DNA of 21,610 bases from an uncultured Deinococcales bacterium (GCA_964247135.1 CAXTTL010000061.1:1-21610); one strand, 5' to 3'; shown: positions 2,713 through 16,095, numbered from the stretch's first letter. The notes: generated by a model not told the origin, from the sequence alone. Made by a program: numbers and translations.

Positions 2713-2756
2713 TCTGCCCTCATCCCCAGCCCTTCTCCCAGCATGGGAGAAGGGAG
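2713..2756 (+). repeat. REP-like hairpin repeat, family A (left flank of DUF559 gene)
   Basis: TCTGCCCTCATCCCCAGCCCTTCTCCCAGCATGGGAGAAGGGAG, with internal stem CCCTTCTCCC/GGGAGAAGGG. Confidence 0.85.
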
Positions 2757-2790
2757 CTTGATTCGATTGTGGTTTGGGTAGAATATTTTT

Positions 2791-3153
2791 ATGGGACGTG
2801 GAATTTTGACGACGGTGGCACGAGTGAATCGGCGCAATGCCACACCAGCAGAGGAATATCTTTGGACGGCATTACGGGATAGAAAGTTGGATGGTTGGAA
2901 GTTCAAGCGACAAAAGGTGATTGGGAAGTTTGTTGCAGATTTTTATTGCCGTGAAGCAAAATTGATTGTCGAACTGGACGGCGCAATCCATGATGCTCGA
3001 GATGCCCAAATCGCAGATGCTTTACGCACCGAATTTTTGAAGGCAAGCGGTTATACGGTCATTCGATTTCGCAATGAAGAAGTTCTGAACAACGTACTCG
3101 AGGTTTTAAAAACCATCAAAACCAACCTTCCAAGCCCAACAAATAGCGCTTAA
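2791..3153 (+). CDS. DUF559 / Vsr-like PD-(D/E)XK endonuclease domain protein
   Basis: 120 aa with T.AE..LW..LR..L.G.KF.RQ..IG.F.ADFYC....L.VELDG..H and D..R..FL...GY.VIRF.NE; TAGAAT 6 nt before the ATG. Confidence 0.9.
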   Translation: MGRGILTTVARVNRRNATPAEEYLWTALRDRKLDGWKFKRQKVIGKFVADFYCREAKLIVELDGAIHDARDAQIADALRTEFLKASGYTVIRFRNEEVLNNVLEVLKTIKTNLPSPTNSA

Positions 3154-3156
3154 AGT

Positions 3157-3201
3157 CTCCCTTCTCCCGATGTTGGGAGAAGGGTCGGGGATGAGGGCAG
3201 A
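3157..3201 (-). repeat. REP-like hairpin repeat, family A (right flank, inverted relative to 2713-2756)
   Basis: Reverse complement TCTGCCCTCATCCCCGACCCTTCTCCCAACATCGGGAGAAGGGAG differs from the left copy by 3 substitutions and a 1-nt indel. Confidence 0.85.
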
Positions 3202-4701: not shown

Positions 4702-4902
4702 GGCAGTCTCCTGAACTGAGTAGAATGGTTATCGCGTGTTGAGGTCGACAACGGAGCATCAAAAACCTGAGCAGGAATCTGCAATTAGATTACCACCGAT
4801 CCACAATTTCTTTCAATATTTGAAGCGCTGAGTGCAGCGTTGGATTATTCTTCAATACTCTGGAAAATTTTCCTCACAACGTCAAGAATTCGCTGTCACT
4901 AA

Positions 4903-4926
4903 GGGCGCAGCAAGCAGCGCCCTTAC
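4903..4926 (-). repeat. GTAG-type REP, family B
   Basis: Minus strand GTAAGGGCGCTGCTTGCTGCGCCC, identical to 7813-7836 except at one base. Confidence 0.8.
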
Positions 4927-5063: not shown

Positions 5064-5172
5064 GAAGCGGTTCTGCCCGAAGGTGCGTTTTAGAACCAAG
5101 AAGCGGTTCTGCCCGAAGCGACCCAGGCCCGTCAGCGATTCCGCCCGTTAGGTGCGTTTTAGAACCAAGAAG
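5064..5172 (-). repeat. Two tandem copies of a 36-nt mini-element, one carrying a 33-nt internal insertion
   Basis: GAAG boundaries at 5064, 5100 and 5169; minus-strand unit CTTC-TTGGTTCTAAAACGCACCTTCGGGCAGAACCG-CTTC; homologous to 15915-15954. Confidence 0.85.
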
Positions 5173-5195
5173 CGGTCCACACTGCGTTAGGTGTT

Positions 5196-5489
5196 TTACA
5201 GCACAACCTTTTCAAAATGCTCCACAATCGGAAACGGATCGTAAAAATGATGCAATAAAGAGCGCCATTCCTGGTATTCACTCGAGCCTCTAAACCCTAC
5301 CGTGTGATCCTCGAGCGTTTCCCATTTTACCAGCAGCACATATTTGTTGGCTTGCTCGAGGCATTTTTGCAGTTCAACCTCAATAAACCCGTTCATGCTC
5401 GAGATGATTTTGGAGGCTTGACGAAACGCGGTTTCAAATTCTGTCTCGAGGTTTGGTTTGATGTGCAGCATGGCAACTTCTAGAATCAT
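5196..5489 (-). CDS. Antibiotic biosynthesis monooxygenase (ABM) family protein
   Basis: 97 aa MILEVAML..FETAF..ASKII..GF..Y.LLVKWETLEDHTVGFRGS.EYQEW..LLHHFYDPFP.VEHF; start moved to the ATG at 5489. Confidence 0.9.
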   Translation of the reverse strand: MILEVAMLHIKPNLETEFETAFRQASKIISSMNGFIEVELQKCLEQANKYVLLVKWETLEDHTVGFRGSSEYQEWRSLLHHFYDPFPIVEHFEKVVL

Positions 5490-5505
5490 GGGGTTAGTAT
5501 AGGTT
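5490..5505. promoter_or_regulatory. Bidirectional overlapping -10 elements for two leaderless genes
   Basis: 16-nt gap GGGGTTAGTATAGGTT: TAGTAT-N5-ATG on + and TATACT-N6-ATG on -. Confidence 0.65.
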
Positions 5506-6264
5506 ATGAACATTGATTTGAACGCCGACGCTGGCGAATCGTTTGGGGCTTTTCGCATGGGGCGTGACGAGGAGTTGTTTGATTTCATCAGCACGGTCAA
5601 TGTGGCGTGCGGTTTTCATGCGGGTGATCCAATCACGATGCAAGCCACGCTCGAGCTTGCCAAGCAAAAGAATGTGGCGGTTGGGGCGCATCCTGGTTAT
5701 CAGGATTTGGTGGGTTTTGGACGCAGGATTCTCGAGGCAACACCTGAACAAGTCTATGCGGATACGGTCTATCAGGTGGCGGCGTTGGCGGGTTTTGCAA
5801 AATTGGCAGATATGAAATTAACGCATGTCAAAGCCCACGGTGCGTTGTCCACTCGAGCTTGGGTTCATGCGCCGACCGCCGAAGCGCTGGCTCGAGCGAC
5901 GAAAGATTTTGACCCGAATTTACCGTTGATGGTCTTGCCTGGGACGTTTCTCGAGTCTGAAGCGCAAAAGTTAAAAGTTCCGATGCTGATTGAGGCTTTC
6001 CCAGAACGGGCGTACATGCGCGATGGTCGGCTTGCGCCGCGTTCAATGGCAGGCTCGAGCATTCACGACCCGAAAGAGGCGGCGAGACGTGCGGTGCAAA
6101 TGGTTAAGGAGCATCGCGTCGAGGCGATTGACGGCGGTTGGTTTGAAATGCAGCCGCAAACCTTGTGCATTCATGGCGACAACCCGCACGCTCCCGAAAT
6201 TGCCAAAGAGGTTCGTGCGGCGCTCGAGGCTGAGGGCATCACCGTTTCACATTCGGGACTTTAA
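5506..6264 (+). CDS. pxpA: 5-oxoprolinase subunit A (LamB/YcsF)
   Basis: DLNADAGES, NVACGFHAGDP, GAHPGY.D..GFGRR, HVKAHGAL and TLCIHGD motifs. Confidence 0.95.
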   Translation: MNIDLNADAGESFGAFRMGRDEELFDFISTVNVACGFHAGDPITMQATLELAKQKNVAVGAHPGYQDLVGFGRRILEATPEQVYADTVYQVAALAGFAKLADMKLTHVKAHGALSTRAWVHAPTAEALARATKDFDPNLPLMVLPGTFLESEAQKLKVPMLIEAFPERAYMRDGRLAPRSMAGSSIHDPKEAARRAVQMVKEHRVEAIDGGWFEMQPQTLCIHGDNPHAPEIAKEVRAALEAEGITVSHSGL

Positions 6265-6266
6265 CC

Positions 6267-7805
6267 GTGCGGCAACTGACTGGTTTTTACGTTCCGTTCT
6301 CGAGCAGCCTTGACCTTGAATCAAACGCCAGAATGCACGCGTTGGCGGAACGACTGCGTACAAATTTACTCGAGGGCATCACGGATTTGTATCCTGGTTA
6401 CATCAACTTGTACGTCGAGTTTGACGCGAATCTGGTGGCTCGAGACACCGTGAAAGCTTGGGTCAAAAAACACGCACTCAATCTCGAGGCGAAGGCGGCA
6501 AGTGGGCGCGAGGTTGTGATTCCTGTTCGGTACGACGGTGAAGACCTCGAATTTGTGGCGCAACAAACAGGTTTGAGTGTCGCGCAAGTGATCGAAAAAC
6601 ACTCGAGCGTCACGTATCAGACCTACACGGTGGGGTTCACGCCTGGCTATCCGTTTTTGGGAAAACTTGATCCTGTACTGCACCTGCCGCGCCGTAAAAC
6701 CCCACGCAAAAAAGTGCCGGCGCACAGCGTCGCCATTGCGGTGGGGCAAACCGGAATTTACCCGCTTTCAACCCCTGGCGGTTGGCACACTCTGGGTTCA
6801 GCGTTGACCGCCGTTTACGATCCTCACCGTGAAAAACCGTTTTTGCTCGAGCCTGGCGATAACGTGCGGTTTGTGCCGAGCGAGGGTGAAACGCCGCCAG
6901 AAGCCAGCGTGCTCGAGATTCTGCCGCTCAAGCCCCAATTTCCAATTTTAAAAGTTGAAAAAGTTGGTGTGCTCGATTTGATTGTCGATCAGGGTCGCGC
7001 TTTGGCGGGTCATTACGGCATGGCGCGGTCAGGAGCGATGGACGAACGCAGCGCCAGCGCCGCGAATGCCTTGGTGGGCAACACAGCCAACGCTGCGGTG
7101 CTCGAGATGACCCTGAAAGGCGTGACGTTTCGCGTTTTGCAAGATGCGGTTTTGGGTTTTGCGGGTTTTGGAATGCGTCTGATGTTGAATTCTCAACCTG
7201 CACCGGCGTTCGAGAGTTTCGCGGTCAAAACTGGCGATCAACTTGAGTTTGTGCCCACGGCAACGGGGGTGCGTGGGTACTTGGCTGTTCCTGGCGGTTT
7301 TGAAAGCTCGAGTTTTATGGATTCCAAAAGCACCGATTTGGTTGGCAGAATCGGGCGGGCGCTTCAAGTAGGGGAGACGCTCGGCATGATGCGACCCTCA
7401 AGCAAAAACCGTGCGGGTTACAGCATTTCCCACTCGAGTTTGCCAGAAACGGTTATTGTGCGTTTGCAGGCTGGACCTCAAGCGACGCCCGAAGCACTTG
7501 CAGCCTTGTGCAGCGCCGAGTTCAAGGTCAGCAGCCCTGACCGCATGGGCGTCAGGCTCGAGGGGGTCAAAGTTCCAGGGGGCGAACTGACCAGCGAAGC
7601 CACGCCGATGGGCGGGGTGCAAATCACCATCGACGGCGACCCGATTTTGCTCTTAAATGACCGAGGACGGATTGGAGGTTACGCCAAACCCGCCGTGGTT
7701 GATCCTCGAGATTTGGGCTTGGTGGCGCAATTGCGACCAGGGCAGAAATTGCGGTTTAAACTGGTTGGTGGATCGAGTTCAGAACACTGGTTTTTGACGC
7801 TATAA
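6267..7805 (+). CDS. pxpBC: Fused 5-oxoprolinase subunits B and C (KipI-KipA type)
   Basis: N half: IPVRYDGEDL, GFTPGYPFLG, LPRRKTPR, GQTGIYP.STPGGW (PxpB). C half: D.GR..GAMD..AN.LVGN, GVRGYLAVPGG, DRMGVRL, GGYAK (PxpC). Confidence 0.92.
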   Translation: MRQLTGFYVPFSSSLDLESNARMHALAERLRTNLLEGITDLYPGYINLYVEFDANLVARDTVKAWVKKHALNLEAKAASGREVVIPVRYDGEDLEFVAQQTGLSVAQVIEKHSSVTYQTYTVGFTPGYPFLGKLDPVLHLPRRKTPRKKVPAHSVAIAVGQTGIYPLSTPGGWHTLGSALTAVYDPHREKPFLLEPGDNVRFVPSEGETPPEASVLEILPLKPQFPILKVEKVGVLDLIVDQGRALAGHYGMARSGAMDERSASAANALVGNTANAAVLEMTLKGVTFRVLQDAVLGFAGFGMRLMLNSQPAPAFESFAVKTGDQLEFVPTATGVRGYLAVPGGFESSSFMDSKSTDLVGRIGRALQVGETLGMMRPSSKNRAGYSISHSSLPETVIVRLQAGPQATPEALAALCSAEFKVSSPDRMGVRLEGVKVPGGELTSEATPMGGVQITIDGDPILLLNDRGRIGGYAKPAVVDPRDLGLVAQLRPGQKLRFKLVGGSSSEHWFLTL

Positions 7806-7812
7806 AAGAAAC

Positions 7813-7836
7813 GTAGGGGCGCTGCTTGCTGCGCCC
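7813..7836 (+). repeat. GTAG-type REP, family B
   Basis: GTAG-GGGCGCTGCTTGCTGCGCCC: tetranucleotide followed by an imperfect palindrome, intergenic. Confidence 0.8.
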
Positions 7837-7877
7837 TTTTGGCAACCATTCTCGAGTTTGAAACAAAAGGAGCAACT

Positions 7878-8687
7878 ATGGAACAACGTTTTAAAAACAA
7901 AGTCATTCTCATCACGGGCGCGGGCAACGGTATCGGTCGCGCCATTGCGAACCGCTACGCGCTCGAGGGTGGCAAGGTCGTGGTGAACGACATCAAACCA
8001 GAATTGGTTGATCTGGTGGTCAACGAAATCAAGGCGGCTGGCGGTACGGCGCTGGGTTTTGTCGGGGATGCCTCGAGCAAAACCGAAATTGACTCGATGT
8101 TTGACGCCACCGAAAAGCAGTTTGGGTATGTCGATGTGGTGGTCAACAACGCGGGTTTGACCAGCGATCAACGCCATTTTTTGAATGCCGACGAAGCCTG
8201 GTGGGACAAGTATTTGCGCATCAACCTGAAAAGCGCTTACCTCTGCGCCTTTCGAGCCGCAAACATCATGGTGCGGCGGCGCAAGGGCGTGATCGTGAAC
8301 GTCTCGAGCGGCGGGGGAACAAGGGCGCACCGTGGGTTTACGGCGTATGACGCGTCCAAGGGTGGCATCGAGGCGTTCACGCGTTCGCTGGCGCTCGATC
8401 TGGGTTTCTACGGTGTTCGGGTCAACTGCCTTGTGCCTGGGTTGATCAACACCTATGGCTTGGAAGGCGACGATCTGGCAGAACGCGAGAAGGTTGTGCC
8501 GTTGCGTCGTTACGGCACAGCCGAGGACATGGTTGGCGCGGCAACGTTTTTGGCGTCCGACGATGCGGCGTACATCACGGGGCAGTGCCTTGTGGTGGAT
8601 GGCGGTGTGCTGGCGCAGCAGCGCAGTGCCAACGTGGACACCTTTCCGCTCTCCAATTTTCCAGACATTGCCCATGACCTCGAGTAA
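7878..8687 (+). CDS. SDR family NAD(P)-dependent oxidoreductase (FabG-like)
   Basis: TGAGNGIG, NNAG, YDASK and ITGQ.L.VDGG motifs; AAGGAG RBS before the ATG at 7878. Confidence 0.93.
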   Translation: MEQRFKNKVILITGAGNGIGRAIANRYALEGGKVVVNDIKPELVDLVVNEIKAAGGTALGFVGDASSKTEIDSMFDATEKQFGYVDVVVNNAGLTSDQRHFLNADEAWWDKYLRINLKSAYLCAFRAANIMVRRRKGVIVNVSSGGGTRAHRGFTAYDASKGGIEAFTRSLALDLGFYGVRVNCLVPGLINTYGLEGDDLAEREKVVPLRRYGTAEDMVGAATFLASDDAAYITGQCLVVDGGVLAQQRSANVDTFPLSNFPDIAHDLE

Positions 8688-8705
8688 AACGTTTGGGGGT
8701 TAACC

Positions 8706-9224
8706 ATGATTCTCGAGACTGAACGATTGATGCTGAGACGGTTTGTGCTGGACGACTTGGATGCCCTGTCTGAGTTGTACCATGATGAAGAAATTCGGCG
8801 GTACTTTCCCGAAGGTGTCTTGGATGATGCGCAAACCAAAGCCGAACTCGAGTGGTTTTTAAACGGGCATCCGAGGTTTCCAGAATTGGGACTTTGGGCG
8901 ACGGTCAACAAAGAATCGGGTGAGTTTATGGGGCGTTGCGGTTTGCTGCCCTGGACCATCGAAGACCGTCAAGAGGTCGAGGTGGCGTACCTGCTGGGCA
9001 AGAAATTCTGGGGACAGGGATTTGCCAGCGAAGCGGCGTTGGCGATTGTTCGTTACGCTTTTGAGCACTTGAATTTGTCGCGTCTGATTTGCTTGATAGA
9101 CCCAGAGAATTTGGCGTCAATCAAAGTCGCCGAGCGTATCGGCATGAGGCTCGAGCAAAAACTGGATGGCATTGATGGTGACGGCATTCCAACCCTGATT
9201 TATGCCATCTCGAGAAACCTCTAA
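8706..9224 (+). CDS. RimJ/RimL-type GNAT N-acetyltransferase
   Basis: LETERL.LR, GRCGL, EVAY.L...FWGQGFASEAA, I.PEN.AS.KVAERIGM. Confidence 0.92.
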   Translation: MILETERLMLRRFVLDDLDALSELYHDEEIRRYFPEGVLDDAQTKAELEWFLNGHPRFPELGLWATVNKESGEFMGRCGLLPWTIEDRQEVEVAYLLGKKFWGQGFASEAALAIVRYAFEHLNLSRLICLIDPENLASIKVAERIGMRLEQKLDGIDGDGIPTLIYAISRNL

Positions 9225-9248
9225 AATCACTTGACTCGAGCGAGGTGT

Positions 9249-9926
9249 TTACCAGGCGGGCGGCAATTCGTCTTCGCTGGTCATGGGTGCGAGTGCCACA
9301 CGAATGATGTAACGCTGTGCGCCGCCGCGCCCAAGGTAACGCAGGTACAATGCCACCAGTTCGTGTTGCAGGGCTTTGGCGTCGCTGTGATCGAGGCGTA
9401 AATCGGTGAACCAACCCTCGAGGATGGCTGGAACATCTGTCACGAGGGGGTTGAACGGGCTTATCGCATTTGAGGCGGGCGAGATCAGCAGTTGACCGTT
9501 TGCTTCTCGGGAGATGCGCACGCCCCAACGCTGGCTGGTGGACTCGAGGGCGGCGATAAAACTTTTCAAAAACACGGGCTGTAAGCTTTGAGACCAGGCA
9601 TCGAGCAAACTTTCCATGTTCTCGAGCGGGGTTGCCTGTAAGGGCACAAAAAAACTGTCTGACACGGCTCGGTAGTATTTGATTGGGCTGCCTTTTCGGG
9701 TTTGGGTGCGCGTGTGGCGCAACAAACCCAATTTCAGCAGTCGCTCAATTTGGTACAGGTAGGCTTTCAGGTCTGCCATGTACTCTTTGGCGACCTCGCT
9801 GGCACTGCGTTCTTTTCCAATAAACGGGTACAGGTATACGGCTTTGTGCGGGTTGGACAGGTACGCGGCGGCTTTTGGGTTGCTGATCTCGAGCGGGGCA
9901 AAGCTGGTCGAGTTTTGCTGTTTCAT
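9249..9926 (-). CDS. Winged-HTH (ArsR-like) transcriptional regulator
   Basis: SASEVAKE..LKAYLYQIERLLKLGLL..RKGSPIKYYRA; start moved to the ATG at 9926, 7 nt after TATACT. Confidence 0.8.
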   Translation of the reverse strand: MKQQNSTSFAPLEISNPKAAAYLSNPHKAVYLYPFIGKERSASEVAKEYMADLKAYLYQIERLLKLGLLRHTRTQTRKGSPIKYYRAVSDSFFVPLQATPLENMESLLDAWSQSLQPVFLKSFIAALESTSQRWGVRISREANGQLLISPASNAISPFNPLVTDVPAILEGWFTDLRLDHSDAKALQHELVALYLRYLGRGGAQRYIIRVALAPMTSEDELPPAW

Positions 9927-10002
9927 CTCGACCAGTATAGCTGCCAATCTGTTGTAGAAAAGGTTTTTGAAATACCTTGCTGTTCGAGTAAAGGGGTCAA
10001 TA

Positions 10003-10878
10003 ATGAAAATATCCACATTTTTAGTGCCGCTCGGTTTGGTGTTTTTGGTCGCTTGCCCTCAAAGCGCTCAACCCATGACCGCCGGCGATGCCAAAACCCT
10101 CAAGACGGTTTTGCCCTTGGCGCTGAACGGTTTTGCCAACAGTGTGCGTTCTGGTGGCTCGAGCGCGGCTGGTACAGCCTCAAATGCGCTCGAGACTTTC
10201 GGTTTGCAGCCAAAAGCCGTGACTGGAAATTGTGGCTCGAGTGCCGCAATCACCGATGCCGACGGCGATAAAGTGCCGAGCAATTTTTCTTATACCTACG
10301 ATTGCACCGTGACCGTTGGGGCTGGTTTTACCTTTAAAGCCAAAGGTTTGGTCAAGAGCAATGACAGCAACGATAACGACCCCAACAGCGGTTACACCAC
10401 CGAGGGCAACTTGCGTTACGATTTTATTTTTACCAACACCCAAACCCAAGAGACATCTGGTTTTGCGTTTGTGGTGCAATGGAATGCCAATGCAACCATC
10501 GCCACTTCCGGCGGTTACACGATCAGCACCGATCAACGCCTGACCTTCCAACCCGACACGGACAAGAGTCAATTTGGTTATCAATTGAGTGCAACCTACC
10601 TGCCAGACGCGGACGGCAACAACCTCAAATTTGATGCCGGAAAACTGAACATTGTTGGATCAGCCAATTTCAGCAACGCGAGCGGCAAGTTTTCAATCTT
10701 AAACCTGAGTGTCAACGATTTGCACTTTGGCGGTACTTGCCCTCGAGCCGTGGACAGCGGCATTGTTCGGCTCGAGGACAGCTCGAATTTGAATGGCAGC
10801 AAAAACAATGTGCTCGAGTTGACCGCCACAGGTTGCGACACCTGGAATGCGACGTATAACGGCAGCCTCGTTTTTTAG
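10003..10878 (+). CDS. Hypothetical lipoprotein
   Basis: MKISTFLVPLGLVFLVA|C lipobox; AAGGGG RBS; acidic motifs DADGDKVP and DSNDNDP; four further Cys. Confidence 0.8.
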   Translation: MKISTFLVPLGLVFLVACPQSAQPMTAGDAKTLKTVLPLALNGFANSVRSGGSSAAGTASNALETFGLQPKAVTGNCGSSAAITDADGDKVPSNFSYTYDCTVTVGAGFTFKAKGLVKSNDSNDNDPNSGYTTEGNLRYDFIFTNTQTQETSGFAFVVQWNANATIATSGGYTISTDQRLTFQPDTDKSQFGYQLSATYLPDADGNNLKFDAGKLNIVGSANFSNASGKFSILNLSVNDLHFGGTCPRAVDSGIVRLEDSSNLNGSKNNVLELTATGCDTWNATYNGSLVF

Positions 10879-10894
10879 ATCATTTCAGTCATTG

Positions 10895-10928
10895 AAATCT
10901 CGAGAAGCATGACTTCTCGAGATTTTTT
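10895..10928 (+). terminator. Intrinsic terminator with CTCGAG in both arms
   Basis: AAATCTCGAGAAG-CATGA-CTTCTCGAGATTT followed by further T's. Confidence 0.8.
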
Positions 10929-10959
10929 GATGTCTGAGCAGGCATGTTTGCGGTATCGC

Positions 10960-11016
10960 TTGACTTTTGAACGCGTTCAGTTTAGTATCTGAACATGTTC
11001 AATTTGAATGCGTTCA
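10960..11016 (+). promoter_or_regulatory. Sigma70-type promoter with three TGAA-N4-TTCA operator-like palindromes
   Basis: TTGACT-N17-TAGTAT-N6-ATG; palindromes TGAACGCGTTCA (10968), TGAACATGTTCA (10990), TGAATGCGTTCA (11005). Confidence 0.75.
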
Positions 11017-11705
11017 AAAACCAGGCAGCCTCGGATGCCCCCTTAAGCAAAGCCGACCTGACCAAACAAAAGATTCTCGAGGAGGCTTTAAAGCTCTTTC
11101 GTGAAAAGGGTTTTGACGCCACCACCATGCGCGACATTGCCGCGACCTGCGACATGGCGGTCGGCACGGCGTACCACCACTTTGAAAGCAAAGAAGCCAT
11201 CGTCAGCGCCTATTACAACTGGGTTCAACTCGAGCACCTGCGCCAAGTCAGCGAATACAACCAAAGCAAACACAGCCTCAAACAACGCCTCGAGCAAGCC
11301 TTTCAAAGCAAACTCGAGATTGTCGCTGGCGACCAAAAATTGCTCGGCGTCATCATGCGTTACATCGGCGAATCCGAACATCCGCTCTCAATTTTTGGCG
11401 CAAAAACCAAAGACTTGCGCGACGAAGGCTTGCAAATCTTCAAAATCGCCCTCGCCGACGAAGCCATGCACGCCGACCTGAAAGAACTCGCGCCACTGAT
11501 TTTTTGGACGCTGCACATGGGAATGCTGCTGTATTTTCTGCACGACCAAACCCAAGGCGAACGCACCAGCAAACTTGGCAAAAGTGCGCTCGAGTTGATT
11601 CTGCAAGTCTTTGGCATGGTCGGTTCGCCACTGGTGCAACCACTGATTAAACCCGTTCTGGGCAAGGTCAAAAAATTACTGAAAACCTATAACTTGATGG
11701 ATTAA
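10995..11705 (+). CDS. TetR/AcrR family transcriptional regulator
   Basis: TKQKILEEALKLFREKGFDATTMRDIA...MAVGTAYHHFESKE HTH signature. Confidence 0.93.
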   Translation: MFNLNAFKNQAASDAPLSKADLTKQKILEEALKLFREKGFDATTMRDIAATCDMAVGTAYHHFESKEAIVSAYYNWVQLEHLRQVSEYNQSKHSLKQRLEQAFQSKLEIVAGDQKLLGVIMRYIGESEHPLSIFGAKTKDLRDEGLQIFKIALADEAMHADLKELAPLIFWTLHMGMLLYFLHDQTQGERTSKLGKSALELILQVFGMVGSPLVQPLIKPVLGKVKKLLKTYNLMD

Positions 11706-11790
11706 AGCTTTACAATCCGCCGCTAAATCTCGAGCCTTCAAACTCAAAAAGCTCGAGCTGGGAAAACACTGCCCAAAACAGGAGGTTGTT

Positions 11791-12195
11791 ATGAATACCA
11801 CCAGAACCATGAGGAACATCGCCACCATCCAACTCGTGATTGCCTTCGGTTGTTGCCTGATCTGTATTCTGCCAAGCCTTGAGTGCCTGATTAGCATCTA
11901 TTTCGCATTGCCCACGATTGTGGTTTGGTGGCTCGGTATTCGCTTGATGATCGGGTACTACAACATCAGCCAAGGCAAACAGGGTATGTTACAAACCCGA
12001 AGACTGTGGTTTGAAAGTCTAATTTTTAACGTCACAATAGCCGTAATCGGAATTTCACTTTCAATCATTTCTTCTGAAATCACCCTCGGGTATTTTTTTC
12101 TATTGATGCCCTCTGTGCTAGGCAGCATCCTTGCAATATGTGCGCTGCTCCTACCGCCAGAAAACAATTGGACGCTCGAGCACAAAACTTTTTAA
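11791..12195 (+). CDS. Hypothetical membrane protein (about 4 TM)
   Basis: AGGAGG RBS; four hydrophobic segments. Confidence 0.65.
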   Translation: MNTTRTMRNIATIQLVIAFGCCLICILPSLECLISIYFALPTIVVWWLGIRLMIGYYNISQGKQGMLQTRRLWFESLIFNVTIAVIGISLSIISSEITLGYFFLLMPSVLGSILAICALLLPPENNWTLEHKTF

Positions 12196-12329
12196 TTTTT
12201 AAGCTTGAAATTCAAGGTCCTTCTCAGCAAGAGCAAGGCTGGAAAAACATTGCCCAAAAAACTGTTAGCGAATCTCGAGTTCAAACGCCATCCAACCCTT
12301 CGCCCTCTCGAGCACAAAGGAGCAACACC

Positions 12330-12743
12330 ATGAATGTTTTGTTGACTTACGCCGTTTACGCCACCATCAGCCTGAGCTTAACGATTTGGGTTGCTCAAAC
12401 CCTGCACAAAAATGGCAAGATTTTCTTGATTGATGCGTTTCGCGGCAACGAACAAATGGCGGATTCGGTCAACCATTTGTTGCAAGTTGGGTTTTATTTG
12501 GTCAATGTTGGTTTTGTTTCACTCTTTTTGCGCTTTGGTGACACGCCAAACGATGCCGTCAGCAGCGTGGAGTACATCAGTACCAAAATTGGGATTGTGC
12601 TGTTGGCGCTTGGTGGAATGCACTTTTTTAACATGTTCAACTTTGCCAACATGCGAAGCAGAGCCAAACGCCACGACAAAATACAAGCCGAGTTAAACTT
12701 CTCAGATCAGGGCAGTATCTCGAGCCTGGAAGCAAAAATCTGA
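12330..12743 (+). CDS. Conserved hypothetical integral membrane protein
   Basis: AAGGAG RBS before the ATG at 12330; Y..S..LT.WVA.TL..NG..FL...F.GN...ADSVN.LL.VGFYL.N.G and K.G...L.LG.MHF.N pattern. Confidence 0.85.
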   Translation: MNVLLTYAVYATISLSLTIWVAQTLHKNGKIFLIDAFRGNEQMADSVNHLLQVGFYLVNVGFVSLFLRFGDTPNDAVSSVEYISTKIGIVLLALGGMHFFNMFNFANMRSRAKRHDKIQAELNFSDQGSISSLEAKI

Positions 12744-12755
12744 GATTGGATTTTC

Positions 12756-12793
12756 AAATGAGGCTCGAGGTTTTTGTCTCGAGCCTCATTTTT
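12756..12793. terminator. Terminator between convergent genes, with CTCGAG in both arms
   Basis: AAATGAGGCTCGAG-GTTTTTGT-CTCGAGCCTCATTT. Confidence 0.8.
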
Positions 12794-12805
12794 ATTGGGT
12801 TGAAT

Positions 12806-15800
12806 TTAGCCCAGTGTTTTTTGACCAATTTTTGGTTTCAAAAAAGGCGCTTCAATGTACTTGTACGACAAACTTGCCGCCCCAAACGCCAGCGCCAACG
12901 CCACACCAGAAATCAACAAATGCTCGCTGAGGCTCGAGATGCCAAAATACTGGTAATTGCTGTTAAACGTTAAACGAATCAACTCGAGGATTAAATAATG
13001 CCAGATGTACAAGCCAAACGAAATCTTGGCGGTGTACCGAAAAAAAGTGTTGTCGAGGAGTCGCCCAAGGATTCTCGAGAATGGCAGGGTGGACAGTTGA
13101 ATGGCGATTAACGCGGGAAAAATGGGGTAGAAATACGGTTGGTTGCCAAGGCTGAAGGCGAAATCTGGGGCGTAACGTTGTGTGAACAAAAACACCATCG
13201 TGACGACAAAAGCGGTTAGTGCAATGCCGTCAAAAATCCAACTCGAGCGGATTTTGAGGTTGCGCAATTTGACAATAATTCCTGCGGCGATCACGCCCAG
13301 AATGTAATGCCCGAACATGCCGACGGCGTTGTAATTGGGCATCCAATATTTTGCGCCGCCAATAAGCCCATGATCCCAACCTCGGTTGACGCTGTCGGGA
13401 ATCAGGTCGGTGATGATGGCTTGATGCGCAATCAACGTGACTGCAAGCACGCCAAACCAGAACAGCAAACCTTGACGAAATGAAGCTCGAGCGGCAAGCA
13501 GTTGAAACATTGCCCACATTGCAATTGGCATCATGGCGTAACACAGCACTTCAAATCCGATGCTCCACAGTGGACCATTCAGGTCGGCGGGGAAGAGCGT
13601 CACGTAATGCAGCGCGGAGGTGAACGTCAGGGCAGAAACATAACGGATGAAGACGGCTTGGGCGTCGGGCACAAAGAACAGGGTGCAAATTACGCTGATG
13701 GTCAGACTGGCGTAAAACCCTGGCACAATCCTGACCGCACGACGACGCGTGAACTCGAGCATGTTGGGGAAATCGCGGCGCTCGAGAAAATTTTTCCAGA
13801 AGGGCATGGATAAAAGCATTCCCGAAAGCACAAAAAACGCGCTGACACCGACTTGTCCGGTCATGATGAAGGCTTGGGCGTCTTGAATAAACTTGCTTTG
13901 CTCGGGGCGGTTTAAACGCTGCGAAAGGTGATGCGCCACCACCATCAAGCACGCCATCGCCCGAATGCCATCCGCGCCGGAAAGGCTGGCGGTGCTCGAG
14001 GAATCCATGATGCGAGCGATTATTTTCTTAAACGGGTCAAACCAAGTCAAAGCCGTATTGCTCGAAATGTTCATGCCCTTGCCGATCTGCCCAGCCGAAA
14101 ATAAAAACAAGATAAACGCGGGCAAACTGGCAATCGCAATGCCAACCGTGAAGGCGCTGCTCGAGGTTGAGAGGTTGCTCATGACTTGTGTGACCATTTG
14201 CGTGTCAGAATTTTTCAGGATGGCGAGGGCTGCGGAGGCATTGTTCCAAACCGTAACGAAGGTCAGTAGACCGAGTGTGACCAACACTGGACGCGCCAGG
14301 GGCATAACAAGGCTGGCAAAGATTCGCAGTTCACTCGCACCATCAATCCGTCCCGCCTCGAGTAAACTTTTTGGCACGGCGGCGGTCAAATACTGACGAA
14401 TCAAAAACACGCCAAACGCGCTGACCGTGGCGGGAACCCAGACGGCTCGAGCCTGATCCATCCAACCAATCACGCCAACCACCAGCACGGTTGGAATCAA
14501 ACTGAGCAGCGACGGGAAGAGCATCACGCCAAGGGTGATGGCGTACAGAACATTGCGCCCTTTAAACTCGAGAAAGGCGAAGCCGAACGCGGCAAGGCTG
14601 GCGGTGATGATCGCGCCAACGGCAGCCAGGGTGCAGATGTAAAAACTGTTCCAGAAATTGCCCCAAAAGTGCGGCACCTGCTCGAGCAAGAATTTGAGGT
14701 TGTAACTCAGCGAATCGCCAAGTTGAAAGTCGATGCTCGAGGAGGGATAATTTCGGGTGGCGTTGAAAAACATCATGACGATGGGCAAAATTGACAGAAT
14801 AATGCCAAACAACACCAGAAATCGCAAAACGATTTTTGAGGTGTTGGAAAAACGAATGGCTGACTGGTCACTCTCGAGGTGTGCGCTGGTGTCCAAGCTC
14901 GAGAAGTTGCGTCCGATTAGGGCGTACACCACCAGCACGATGGCGACCATGCCGAAGAAATACACCATCGTCATTTCGCTCGCCAAGCCCATGTCAAAAT
15001 CCCAGAAACCCGTGCGGAAAATATAGGTCGGCAGGTCGGTGGTGCTGGGGTTGAAGCTGCTCGAGTACCAGGCGTTGGTCGCGCCCTGAAAACCGCGCAA
15101 GAAACTCATGGTGAAGGCGACAAAAATCATCGGGCGCATCAAGGGCAAAGCAACGCGCCCGAACAAACCCCAGAAGCCCGCGCCGTCGAGTTGCGCCGCT
15201 TCGTACAAGCTGCGCGGAATCGAATTGAGCACCATCAAATACAACAAAACATTCCAACCCACCGTGCCCCACAAACTCACGAACGCCACCCGAGCATCCT
15301 CGAGGTACAAACTGGTGTTGGGAATGAACGTGCCCAAAAGTGGCAGGTGCGAAAGCCAGCCAAAACCAGCATCAATAAACTGCCAGACGAACAAGAAAAA
15401 CGTGCTTAAAACCGAAGCCGCCGCGATGCTCGAGGTCATGTACGGCAGGAAAAAAATGGTTCCCAAAACGCCCTGAATGCGTTTGAATGCCATGTGCAAA
15501 ATAAACGCCAACGGAATGGCAATCAGGTGTTGCGGGATGGCGCTGAACACCGCCTGACGAAGCGTGCGCAACAACGCCGACCAGAAATTGGGATCGTTGA
15601 CAAACGTATAATTGTACGCCCACAAACCCGAGAATTTCAGGTGGTTTAAACCCGCCACAGGGTTGTACTCAAAAAAACTGACGAACAACGAGAACGCCAA
15701 GGGCGCAATGCCGAACGCCAGCAACAAACAAAAAAACGGTGCGATAAAACCATAACCCACCCAACTCGAGCGCCACGGTTTACGGGCGGGTTGGCTCGAG

Positions 15801-15826
15801 GTTTTGGCTGGGAGACTGAGGTTCAC
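12806..15826 (-). CDS. Fusion: carbohydrate ABC permease 1 + permease 2 + acyltransferase_3 (OafA-like)
   Basis: Single 1006-aa ORF with AGGAG RBS and GTG start. Two EAA loops (IPRSLYEAAQLDGA, VPKSLLEAGRIDGA), then AT3 motifs DGIRA..LMVVAHH, GVSAFFVLSGML, F.RRR.VRI.P, LWSIGFE, ISFGLYIWH, SYKYIEAP. Confidence 0.85.
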   Translation of the reverse strand: MNLSLPAKTSSQPARKPWRSSWVGYGFIAPFFCLLLAFGIAPLAFSLFVSFFEYNPVAGLNHLKFSGLWAYNYTFVNDPNFWSALLRTLRQAVFSAIPQHLIAIPLAFILHMAFKRIQGVLGTIFFLPYMTSSIAAASVLSTFFLFVWQFIDAGFGWLSHLPLLGTFIPNTSLYLEDARVAFVSLWGTVGWNVLLYLMVLNSIPRSLYEAAQLDGAGFWGLFGRVALPLMRPMIFVAFTMSFLRGFQGATNAWYSSSFNPSTTDLPTYIFRTGFWDFDMGLASEMTMVYFFGMVAIVLVVYALIGRNFSSLDTSAHLESDQSAIRFSNTSKIVLRFLVLFGIILSILPIVMMFFNATRNYPSSSIDFQLGDSLSYNLKFLLEQVPHFWGNFWNSFYICTLAAVGAIITASLAAFGFAFLEFKGRNVLYAITLGVMLFPSLLSLIPTVLVVGVIGWMDQARAVWVPATVSAFGVFLIRQYLTAAVPKSLLEAGRIDGASELRIFASLVMPLARPVLVTLGLLTFVTVWNNASAALAILKNSDTQMVTQVMSNLSTSSSAFTVGIAIASLPAFILFLFSAGQIGKGMNISSNTALTWFDPFKKIIARIMDSSSTASLSGADGIRAMACLMVVAHHLSQRLNRPEQSKFIQDAQAFIMTGQVGVSAFFVLSGMLLSMPFWKNFLERRDFPNMLEFTRRRAVRIVPGFYASLTISVICTLFFVPDAQAVFIRYVSALTFTSALHYVTLFPADLNGPLWSIGFEVLCYAMMPIAMWAMFQLLAARASFRQGLLFWFGVLAVTLIAHQAIITDLIPDSVNRGWDHGLIGGAKYWMPNYNAVGMFGHYILGVIAAGIIVKLRNLKIRSSWIFDGIALTAFVVTMVFLFTQRYAPDFAFSLGNQPYFYPIFPALIAIQLSTLPFSRILGRLLDNTFFRYTAKISFGLYIWHYLILELIRLTFNSNYQYFGISSLSEHLLISGVALALAFGAASLSYKYIEAPFLKPKIGQKTLG

Positions 15827-15893
15827 TTCGGGTTGCTCCTGGTGTCTCGAGTGTACTGGGGGAATATTAAGATTGAACGATAAGCAATTGCTC

Positions 15894-15977
15894 GGTCTAT
15901 CCTCATCCCCAACCCTTCTTGACCATAAAACGCACCTACGGGCATGGTCGCTTCTCCGAACATCGGGAGAAGAGGGA
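15894..15977 (+). repeat. Solo family A hairpin repeat interrupted by the 36-nt mini-element
   Basis: GGTCTATCCTCATCCCCAACCCTTC[36 nt]TCCGAACATCGGGAGAAGAGGGA; removing the 36 nt restores a near match to 2711-2756 and 3157-3201. Confidence 0.85.
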
Positions 15978-16037: not shown

Positions 16038-16095
16038 GTAGGGTGCGCTGTGCGCACCAGAGCATGTGAATAACGGTGCGCGAGGCGCACCCTAC
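16038..16095. repeat. Inverted GTAG-REP doublet (REPIN-like)
   Basis: GTAG-GGTGCGCTGTGCGCACC ... GGTGCGCGAGGCGCACC-CTAC, just downstream of the GH43 stop. Confidence 0.85.

Follow-up and report, generated by a model that had tools for sequence, protein, structure and literature searches.

The window considered here is a stretch of 21,610 nt from an uncultured Deinococcales bacterium (GCA_964247135.1, CAXTTL010000061.1:1-21610), and the subject of this work is a hairpin unit of 36 nt that occupies two loci within it. One copy lies on the plus strand at 15916-15951, has a stem of the class ACCAT/ATGGT and a loop TAC, and sits inside a longer repeat, family A, between CCC and TTCTCC. The left part of this host repeat (CGGTCTATCCTCATCCCCAACCC) covers 15893-15915 on the plus strand, as given by the repeat finder and the genome-wide count of family A, and the right part (TTCTCCG and onward to the small hairpin GGGAGAAG) covers 15952-15977 on the same strand, as given by the repeat finder and the comparison with orthologs. 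The repeat finder also detected an empty family A copy at 2713-2760 (plus), with the insertion site CCC^TTCTCC unoccupied, and another empty copy at 3153-3201 (minus), inverted relative to the former. Excision of 15916-15951 gives back the family A repeat in the form of the copy 2713-2760. The initial annotation of this DNA had claimed as much, and the empty orthologous site in a related genome, G001, agrees with it.

The second locus, 5064-5172, is more intricate. Here, a simple 36-nt unit of the class GTTCT/AGAAC with the loop TTC occupies 5067-5102 on the minus strand, in tandem after a complex unit at 5103-5171 on the same strand. The complex unit had been taken for a third tandem copy at 5100-5172. 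Parts of the unit are indeed present there, but they do not make up a plain tandem unit: there is one left half (5151-5171, GTTCT), then two unmatched right halves (5135-5150, GGAAT, and 5118-5134, CTGGGT, of a divergent class), and finally the matching right half (5103-5117, AGAAC). An intact nest elsewhere in the genome (C4:45127) shows these right halves in the same succession, and the complex unit may represent a nested stack that has lost its inner left halves through deletion between the repeated GCACC cores. For the locus 5064-5172 an empty orthologous site is not definable, as synteny in the relatives ends directly past the stop codon of the gene.

The two 40-nt stretches that contain the simple copies (5064-5103, minus, and 15915-15954, plus) are identical at 31 of 40 positions, and the repeat finder pairs them as 78% complementary over 40 nt. 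Eight of the nine differences between them form four compensatory pairs, exactly as first reported. The stem itself had been assigned 4 bp and has to be corrected to 6 bp, namely a constant G-C pair and five variable pairs. The pattern of core plus loop has two matches in the window against 0.05 expected, and two were reached in 0 of 100 shuffles.

The general layout of the unit is TTCTTG, a variable arm of 5 nt, AARAYGCACC, a loop of 3-4 nt, GGGC, the complementary arm and CGC, with a total length of 36-37 nt. We searched the whole genome (386 contigs, 5.09 Mb) with a regular expression consisting of TTG, five bases, the ten-base core ending in ACC, the loop, GGGC or GGTC, five bases and C. 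This pattern search, which had been suggested in the initial annotation, returned 107 units, and a search for the left half alone returned 132; the genome total is about 100 simple units. Their arms are complementary as a rule: all five variable pairs are Watson-Crick in 92 of the 107 units, and four are in 8. By stem class the units fall into ACCAT/ATGGT (51), GTTTC/GAAAC (14), ATCCC/GGGAT (10), ATTCC/GGAAT (5), ATGCC/GGCAT (5), ACCCT/AGGGT (3) and singles, including GTTCT/AGAAC of the window, and at least 10 classes are perfectly Watson-Crick. Loci of related metagenome genomes add the classes GTTCC, GTCTC, ACTAT and TTTCC, the exact complement being present for each. A divergent class with the core AAAGCAGCACC and the right half GGGCTTGGG accounts for most of the apparent orphan right halves. 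The loop had been described as a C(UNCG)G tetraloop, which holds for the 3-nt loops TTC, TAC and TGC (31 of 107 units) but not in general, since most loops are 4-nt TNNC.

Covariation was evaluated on an alignment of 61 units, two from the window and 59 of 60 from loci of Deinococcales metagenome-assembled genomes (MAGs); the excluded unit, from a cyanobacterial record, had only 3 of 5 arm pairs. Under the named structure 98.7% of the cells pair, and five of the six outer pairs have changed on both sides. Such both-sided changes occupy 89 cells, compared with 33.6 +/- 4.8 in shuffled alignments, and none of 500 shuffles was as high. A shift of the partner by 1-3 columns lowers the pairing to 31-47%, and the outer helix of these 61 units contains no G-U pair. 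Hardly any variation is seen in the flanks (5' TTCTT and 3' GC), in the internal loop AARAY, at the bulged A or in the four inner pairs. The conserved portions of the unit are its unpaired stretches, namely the two flanks, the internal loop and the bulge, and the outer 6-bp stem changes freely provided that Watson-Crick pairing is kept. Folding of single sequences yields the expected hairpin at -4.7 kcal/mol as DNA, with z of only -1.0 to -1.4. The case for the fold therefore rests on covariation, because the hairpin alone is modestly stable.

Within one stem class about 30 of 36 positions are strongly conserved. The commonest class, represented by 49 units, varies at three places only, namely its initial base, the core Y (25 C, 24 T) and the loop interior. 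The last of these is hypervariable, with 14 variants among 49 otherwise near-identical units.

The insertion boundaries were read from 98 units with at least four of the five arm pairs. C precedes the unit in 82 of them, T is its first base in 79, C is its last base in 95 and T comes next in 78. The first three bases are TTC in 75 units, GTC in 10, CTC in 8, TTT in 4 and ATC in 1. Among the 25 units outside recognised repeat contexts, C stands before 17 and T after 20. Where a unit is nested in another, the letters of the outer loop (TAAC, TGAC, TCAC, TAC) are kept on the right flank and the left flank reads TTC. In hairpins of the repeat family REP1, one of several families of repetitive extragenic palindromic sequences (REPs) in this genome, the unit is bounded by GGTGCGC and by CTC, CTT, CCC or CGT. 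These junctions show an insert that runs from TTCTTG to CGC, or in a frame one base leftward, and that enters after C and usually before T, without target duplication.

A direct repeat of CTTC at the ends had been noticed initially, and it does flank both copies in the window; as a general target duplication it fails, as only in 37 of the 98 do the three bases that follow the unit repeat its first three, mostly in tandem arrays or in TTC-bearing targets. We rejected duplication of either CTTC or TTC, because the right flank retains the bases of the target loop (TAAC, TGAC, CTC and others) and the left is almost always TTC. The CTTC repeat of the window is explained by the 5' end of the unit plus a target that happens to read TTC. 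Nor are the TTCTTG and CGC ends inverted repeats, so that the unit has neither the terminal inverted repeats nor the target-site duplication of classical miniature inverted-repeat transposable elements (MITEs).

Where does the unit insert? In the same 98 units the context is the loop of another unit in 24 cases, the position directly behind another unit in 15, the main site of family A in 11 and its second site in 4, loops of REP1 in 6, REP2 in 6, REP3 in 3, REP4 in 4, and other places in 25. The boundaries of the insert are identical in at least 10 kinds of target. When left and right halves are treated as brackets and parsed by a stack, 129 arm pairs are obtained, 111 of them perfect, with depth 2 in thirteen arrays and depth 3 in one, an example of the latter being ACCAT(ATTCC(ACCAT)). 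Tandem arrays contain up to four units. The units abut or nest and have no spacers between them, as opposed to the repeats of a CRISPR (clustered regularly interspaced short palindromic repeats) array. One unit in unique DNA, at C13:39877-39913 (L146:778-814), lies in the loop of a Rho-independent terminator just past a stop codon. Its landing places are at or near hairpin tips in DNA, be it in the loop of another unit, of a REP or of a terminator, or at the fixed site of family A. All 10 insertions into REP1, nested ones included, lie on the GTAG strand, and in REP2 and REP4 the units are found on both strands and at differing positions.

The variable stem had been thought to be either purely structural or a carrier of specificity. 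There is no link between stem class and kind of target, since family A takes five classes and nests mix many, and the stem class looks structural rather than specifying.

With respect to genes, 77 of the 98 units lie outside long open reading frames (ORFs), in a genome of which 86% is crude ORF. Convergent spacers contain 19 units and divergent ones 6, against a background of 433 and 459, respectively. Between co-directional genes the orientation is even, 22 units being in the same direction and 21 in the opposite one. In one place (C24:28873-28908) a 36-nt unit was found in a REP4-like hairpin within an open frame of 936 residues, which may be a read-through of two genes across repeats.

The main site of family A is empty in 71 copies of this genome and filled in 18, with five stem classes among the occupants. 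At the orthologue of the 15916 site G001 has an empty family A, G003 has a unit of the ATTCC class at the same point, G002 has a unit of the ATTCC class with a nest and a second filled site, and G004 is without family A. Similarly, a REP1 that follows an orthologous gene is filled in this genome and empty in G001, and the terminator hairpin at C13 is filled here and has an ordinary, empty loop in G004. At one further locus, C3:30711, which adjoins a transposase-like gene, the comparison with relatives was not usable. We take these differences between orthologous sites as showing independent and recent insertions of the unit.

The distribution was traced with a 19-nt pattern of the left half; the control, the same pattern read backwards, gave 0-1 matches everywhere. 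To the 132 left halves of this genome, five genomes of the same genus add 272, 187, 218, 133 and 87. Other genera of the family have 0-41, including two genomes of one genus (G007 and G011) with 0, and 22 genomes from the four other families of the order have 0-1. In a scan with one genome per species, the multi-copy loci among the matches listed were all titled 'Deinococcales bacterium' MAGs. Among the listed matches to the left-half pattern, the dominant stem class differs between genomes. Nine of the 98 units lie within 150 nt of contig ends or runs of N, a zone that makes up 2.3% of the genome. The counts are lower bounds because the units cluster in such places, and an assembly artefact is ruled out by the recurrence of the unit in many independent assemblies. 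The unit family is real, lineage-restricted and high-copy.

Copy number, lineage restriction, covariation, nested arms and differing orthologous sites together uphold the initial suggestion of a very small non-autonomous mobile unit that targets folded repeats. We consider it very probable that the unit is a mobile, hairpin-seeking DNA element, and it is among the smallest mobile elements seen.

Which activity could move it? Our tentative proposal, whose chances we put a little below even as a whole statement, is that the unit is a non-autonomous mobile DNA hairpin of 36-37 nt, moved as single-stranded DNA (ssDNA) by a trans-acting HUH nuclease of the kind found in IS200 or in REP-associated tyrosine transposases (RAYTs). 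Such a tyrosine nuclease would nick between C and T (C^T) on either side of the stem, at a distance of five bases on the 5' side and of two on the 3' side, and the released hairpin would be joined into another exposed C^T. Hairpin tips would be hit because they are single-stranded in folded or extruded DNA. Each insertion would create a new tip with a new C^T, and hence nests, and a new C^T at the 3' end, and hence tandem arrays. The strict Watson-Crick stem, the conserved unpaired bases, the strand-specific REP1 insertion, to which the bias towards the GTAG strand points, and a size seemingly too small for a double-stranded circle argue for a ssDNA hairpin moved by an HUH enzyme. The RAYTs of E. 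coli and S. maltophilia, in the experiments described in the cited part of PMC8266576, cut ssDNA at C^T 5' or 3' of the bound hairpin and transfer the strands.

Candidate enzymes are present. This genome has four Y1_Tnp loci: one gene is IS200-like, one RAYT is flanked by inverted copies of REP1 and another by inverted copies of REP2, and a decayed RAYT contains a REP. The genus has at least four RAYT lineages. The Y1 and RAYT-like loci checked are flanked by, or contain, REPs of the GTAG type (REP1, REP2, REP5).

A number of results weigh against this proposal. None of these four loci, nor of 10 RAYT-like loci in G001-G004, G012 and G016, contains an HUH gene flanked by the unit, which bears out the earlier statement that no cognate enzyme is assignable; a unit is nearby in one of the 10 loci of the relatives, where it is located inside the flanking REP2. 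Published RAYTs require a GTAG or GTGG head, according to the passages cited from PMC8266576. The unit has no such head, its 5' flank being TTCTT in the 61-unit alignment; its opposite strand reads NNAGGTGCG at the apex, and GTAGG appears there only with the loop TAC, in 8 of 107 units. The published RAYT cuts beside the hairpin and not in the loop. PF01797 and the unit do not go together consistently: G007 and G011 combine Y1 genes with 0 units, and a search for Y1 gave no match in the unit-bearing G006 (29 left halves, 74% complete) and G008 (10 left halves, 91% complete). The C^T rule is not absolute, holding at about 80%, as REP1 loops have C^C and some units begin with G or C. Targets are not always loops either. 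The family A site lies in a stem, 3 bp inside a small one, so that 'loop' is not strictly true for every target, and the insertions in REP2 and REP4, on both strands, are at varied positions. Finally, the orientation of the unit relative to local GC skew is not significantly biased, at 46 to 33 (p = 0.18), in a genome whose skew is weak.

Some RAYT-like genes have features of their own. In four of them, L166 (G001:C828), L172 (G002:C402), L169 (G003:C712) and C5:5357, a REP of the GTAGGGGATGGTC type lies inside the coding region, and in a RAYT-like gene of G001 the REP head has been expanded to a tandem 12-nt array (GTAGGGGATGGT, 6-7 repeats).

The rival explanation that survives best dispenses with a dedicated enzyme. 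The unit would spread by error of replication or repair at stalled or cleaved hairpins, through template switching or short-patch gene conversion with microhomology at CGC^TTC, and intrastrand quasi-palindrome correction would keep the stems. The resemblance of targets (ACC^TTC, CCC^TTC, TGC^TTG) to the donor junction CGC^TTC speaks in its favor, as do the stem without wobble intermediates, the homology at the flanks that nested and empty units have in common, namely AARAYGCACC (10 nt) and CGGGC (5 nt), and the complex unit of the window, which resembles a deletion between repeated cores. The failure to find an enzyme at the Y1 and RAYT loci or in the search for long copies is also in line with it. 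However, the terminator loop at C13 and the REP1 loops share almost no homology with the donor, the boundaries of the insert are the same in those at least 10 kinds of target, and one family A site has been reached by five stem classes. Restriction to a single family, with 0-1 matches in the four neighbouring ones, also fits a lineage-specific enzyme more easily. We regard this explanation as unlikely.

A second alternative comes from an insertion sequence (IS) of the IS110 family that is found in the loop of the unit. An insert of 1.19 kb at C51:14326-15515 (L139:527-1716) separates two unit halves, the left one standing next to an arm of REP1 and the right one next to the remainder of REP1. 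The insert begins with TGTAAGTTGG, ends with ACACGGCTG and encodes a protein of 331 residues with both IS110 domains, PF01548 and PF02371. The same element also occurs in G001, within a unit that occupies a REP2 loop (L142, G001:C261), and within another unit in G003 (L141, G003:C800), and a truncated copy in G001 (L145, G001:C634) has the right half of an ATTCC-class unit behind it. The initial annotation had suggested looking for long copies whose ends enclose an IS110-type ORF. Such loci were found, and because their guides, which resemble those of a bridge RNA, match the apex of the unit, we read them as IS110 inserted in the unit loop and not as parents of the unit. Pairing of regular-expression matches in this genome gave, for long copies enclosing an ORF, one far pair, which is spurious; the IS110 locus came to light through PF01548.

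In all the IS110 copies the left flank ends with GCAC-CT and the right flank starts with CT and the remainder of the loop. These flanks are the CT core of IS110 elements, which have this feature and target REP-like hairpins, as far as the cited part of PMC11208160 describes them. In three copies the 5' non-coding region of the IS folds into an apical hairpin and a long stem interrupted by an internal loop. On its 5' side this loop reads GCAAUGCACCC, or CAAACGCACCU in G003, which equals the core of the unit plus the crossover. On the 3' side it contains CCCGAAG in the two copies lodged in TTC loops and CCGAUAG in that of G003, which has TATC as its target loop; these are complementary to CT-TCGGG and CT-ATCGG, respectively. 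The predicted structure is laid out as the target loop of a bridge RNA and co-varies with the loop of the unit. A search of Rfam with this region gave no family, the sole match being a sub-threshold L10 leader nearby. The bases that are hypervariable in the unit loop are the ones that the predicted right-hand guide of the IS110 element reads. In addition, the 5' non-coding region carries a diverged unit-like hairpin (TTCTTGACCCTACTACGCCACCTGACGGGGCTGGGTCGC) at L139:645-683 (C51:14444-14482), with C^T on both sides; it is conserved in three genomes and may be an old insertion or a working part.

Could the bridge recombinase of this element move the unit, with the CG-CT-TC junction as a donor, or could the unit halves ride with the IS, its later precise exit leaving an intact unit? 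The IS does lie between two unit halves in G000, G001 and G003, which are also the genomes where PF01548 is present, and it enters at the same CT as nested units, both of them leaving CT on each side. The CT core and the REP-like hairpin targets described for IS110 elements in the cited part of PMC11208160 also fit, as does the unit-like hairpin conserved in the 5' region of the three copies. Against this, the loop resembling a bridge RNA matches the apex of the unit as target and not the outer junction, and the ends of the IS (TGTAAG... and ...GGCTG) are unlike those of the unit. IS110 donors are double-stranded circles in that part of PMC11208160, and a circle of 36 bp seems to us too small. 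The range of targets is ill-suited to a guide of about 11 nt, no match to PF01548 was found in G005 (87 left halves, 92% complete), and the stem class of the halves around the IS differs from copy to copy, as expected if the IS hops between units. Movement of the unit by the recombinase is therefore improbable. The IS110 element uses the unit as a landing site and probably does not move it, since its guides match the apex of the unit and do not match the outer junction. A guide loop that follows the variants of the unit loop is a natural case of a bridge RNA co-varying with a fast-changing target.

Returning to movement as a ssDNA hairpin, a more speculative version combines these observations. 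The unit would be mobile in a distinct way, as nothing more than a single-stranded hairpin of 36 nt for which a C-specific activity of nicking and joining and any exposed tip would suffice; hairpins would grow by stacking of tips, and the loop would be in an arms race with the bridge-RNA IS, as in the pairings CCCGAAG/TTC and CCGAUAG/TATC. We consider it rather unlikely in this full form.

A route through RNA, as reportedly proposed for the small dispersed repeats (SDRs) of cyanobacteria, would have the hairpin transcribed, inserted in a transcript or in DNA and reverse-transcribed. The compact hairpin with conserved unpaired bases suits such a route, C(UNCG)G fits a third of the loops, most units lie in transcribed 3' regions (the 19 units in convergent and 6 in divergent spacers), and this genome has one RVT_1 gene. 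No match to RVT_1 was obtained, however, in G001, G003 and G005, which have 272, 218 and 87 left halves and are 88-92% complete; the orientation relative to genes, 22 to 21, is even, and the outer helix is without a G-U pair. We find this route as doubtful as movement by the IS110 recombinase. Finally, it is very improbable that the unit is not mobile now but a host-kept motif (for example, a site bound by a protein or an added part of terminator and REP hairpins) multiplied with host repeats, for although its conservation within a class, its preference for gene 3' ends and its many copies inside repeats that themselves multiply would suit such a motif, orthologous sites in congeneric species vary in the presence and stem class of the unit, the units form nests and tandem arrays, they point in either direction with respect to genes, and the dominant class differs by genome among the matches listed.

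It is instructive to compare the unit with known systems. The closest are the elements SDR1-8 of Nostoc and related cyanobacteria, which Elhai in 2008 reportedly described as 21-27 nt long, with a shared hairpin subject to compensatory changes, located within their own copies and within other repeats at precise positions, and confined to a lineage; movement via RNA is said to have been proposed there, with the enzyme not known. The unit is like the SDRs in being very small, in nesting in its own copies and in the compensatory changes of its stem. It differs in length (36-37 nt versus 21-27 nt) and in its occurrence in Deinococcota rather than cyanobacteria. For the unit we can show C^T junctions, an empty/filled series of orthologous sites and an IS110 partner. 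Precise insertion of SDR5 inside HIP1 is recorded in the cited part of PMC4390886.

Like the REP/REPIN-RAYT systems, the unit is a short, extragenic, high-copy hairpin that favors gene 3' ends and in which structure outweighs stem sequence, and its junctions, as judged from sequence, match the C^T cleavage described in the cited passages of PMC8266576. In contrast to REPs and REPINs, it has no GTAG/GTGG head, no flanking RAYT gene and no inverted doublets; among neighbouring pairs of units within 200 nt, 17 are co-oriented and 1 is inverted. It also enters loops, REP loops included, and forms nests and direct tandem arrays. Thus, three hallmarks of REPs (head, REPtron and doublets) are absent and one (C^T junctions) is present.

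The IS110 family (IS621, ISPpu10) shares with the unit a repeated stem-loop target and the CT crossover, according to the cited parts of PMC11208160 and 10.64898/2026.03.19.712850. The 36-mer differs in being non-coding and, in our judgement, too short for a double-stranded circle, and it does not share the IS ends; the TGTAAGTTGG and ACACGGCTG ends of the IS differ from its own, so that it is a landing site and not a miniature derived from IS110. With IS200/IS605 elements and their miniatures the unit would share transposition as ssDNA without target duplication and the recognition of a hairpin and a short adjacent sequence. Those elements, however, have a hairpin near each end and a target of 4-5 nt read by a guide, whereas the unit has a single hairpin and a target C (usually C^T); the resident IS200-like element at C249 has unrelated end hairpins of the GAAGCAAGCTTC type.

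Other elements seek hairpins and use folded DNA as a landmark, for example IS1397 and ISKpn1 in REP loops, class C group II introns after terminators and the attC sites of integrons. Each of them is long and either codes for or depends on a known enzyme. The literature searched contained no element such as the unit in Deinococcota. The unit family belongs to a rare and poorly understood kind of element, for which a trans-acting HUH nuclease is the best-supported guess for the mover. If the proposed mechanism is true, the unit would be among the smallest mobile DNAs known, its insertion would be guided by DNA folding rather than by sequence, and the case would lie outside the cyanobacteria, the only setting where comparable elements were described, and never explained. 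With many stem classes, empty and filled orthologous sites and several HUH candidates in one genus, the movement of tiny repeats becomes testable in vitro. From a practical point of view, arrays of the unit break assemblies and inflate spurious ORFs.

The remaining features of the window concern its repeats and two genes. A REP1 doublet of the GTAGGGTGCGC type with empty loops lies at 16038-16095; hairpins of the REP1 type elsewhere bear the unit in the loop. An empty REP2 hairpin (GTAGGGGCGCTGCTTGCTGCGCCC), a recurrent target elsewhere, is at 7813-7838 on the plus strand, and its inverted copy is at 4901-4926. Between the inverted family A copies (window 2713-3201) lies a DUF559 gene at 2791-3153 (120 residues, Vsr-like endonuclease fold), a layout reminiscent of a RAYT gene between its REPs. 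Two of the four DUF559 loci of the genome, this one and C252:2675-3200, have inverted family A around the gene. The DUF559 endonuclease was considered as the mover of the unit and rejected: it lies next to family A, yet its distribution does not follow the unit. CTCGAG is present in almost all short repeat families that the repeat finder detected in the whole window (for example, 2985-3003, 7552-7571 and 13069-13090). The ORF at 12806-15826 (minus), with 1006 residues, combines BPD_transp_1 (ABC-type permease) and acyltransferase-3 domains and represents either a fusion or two genes read together.

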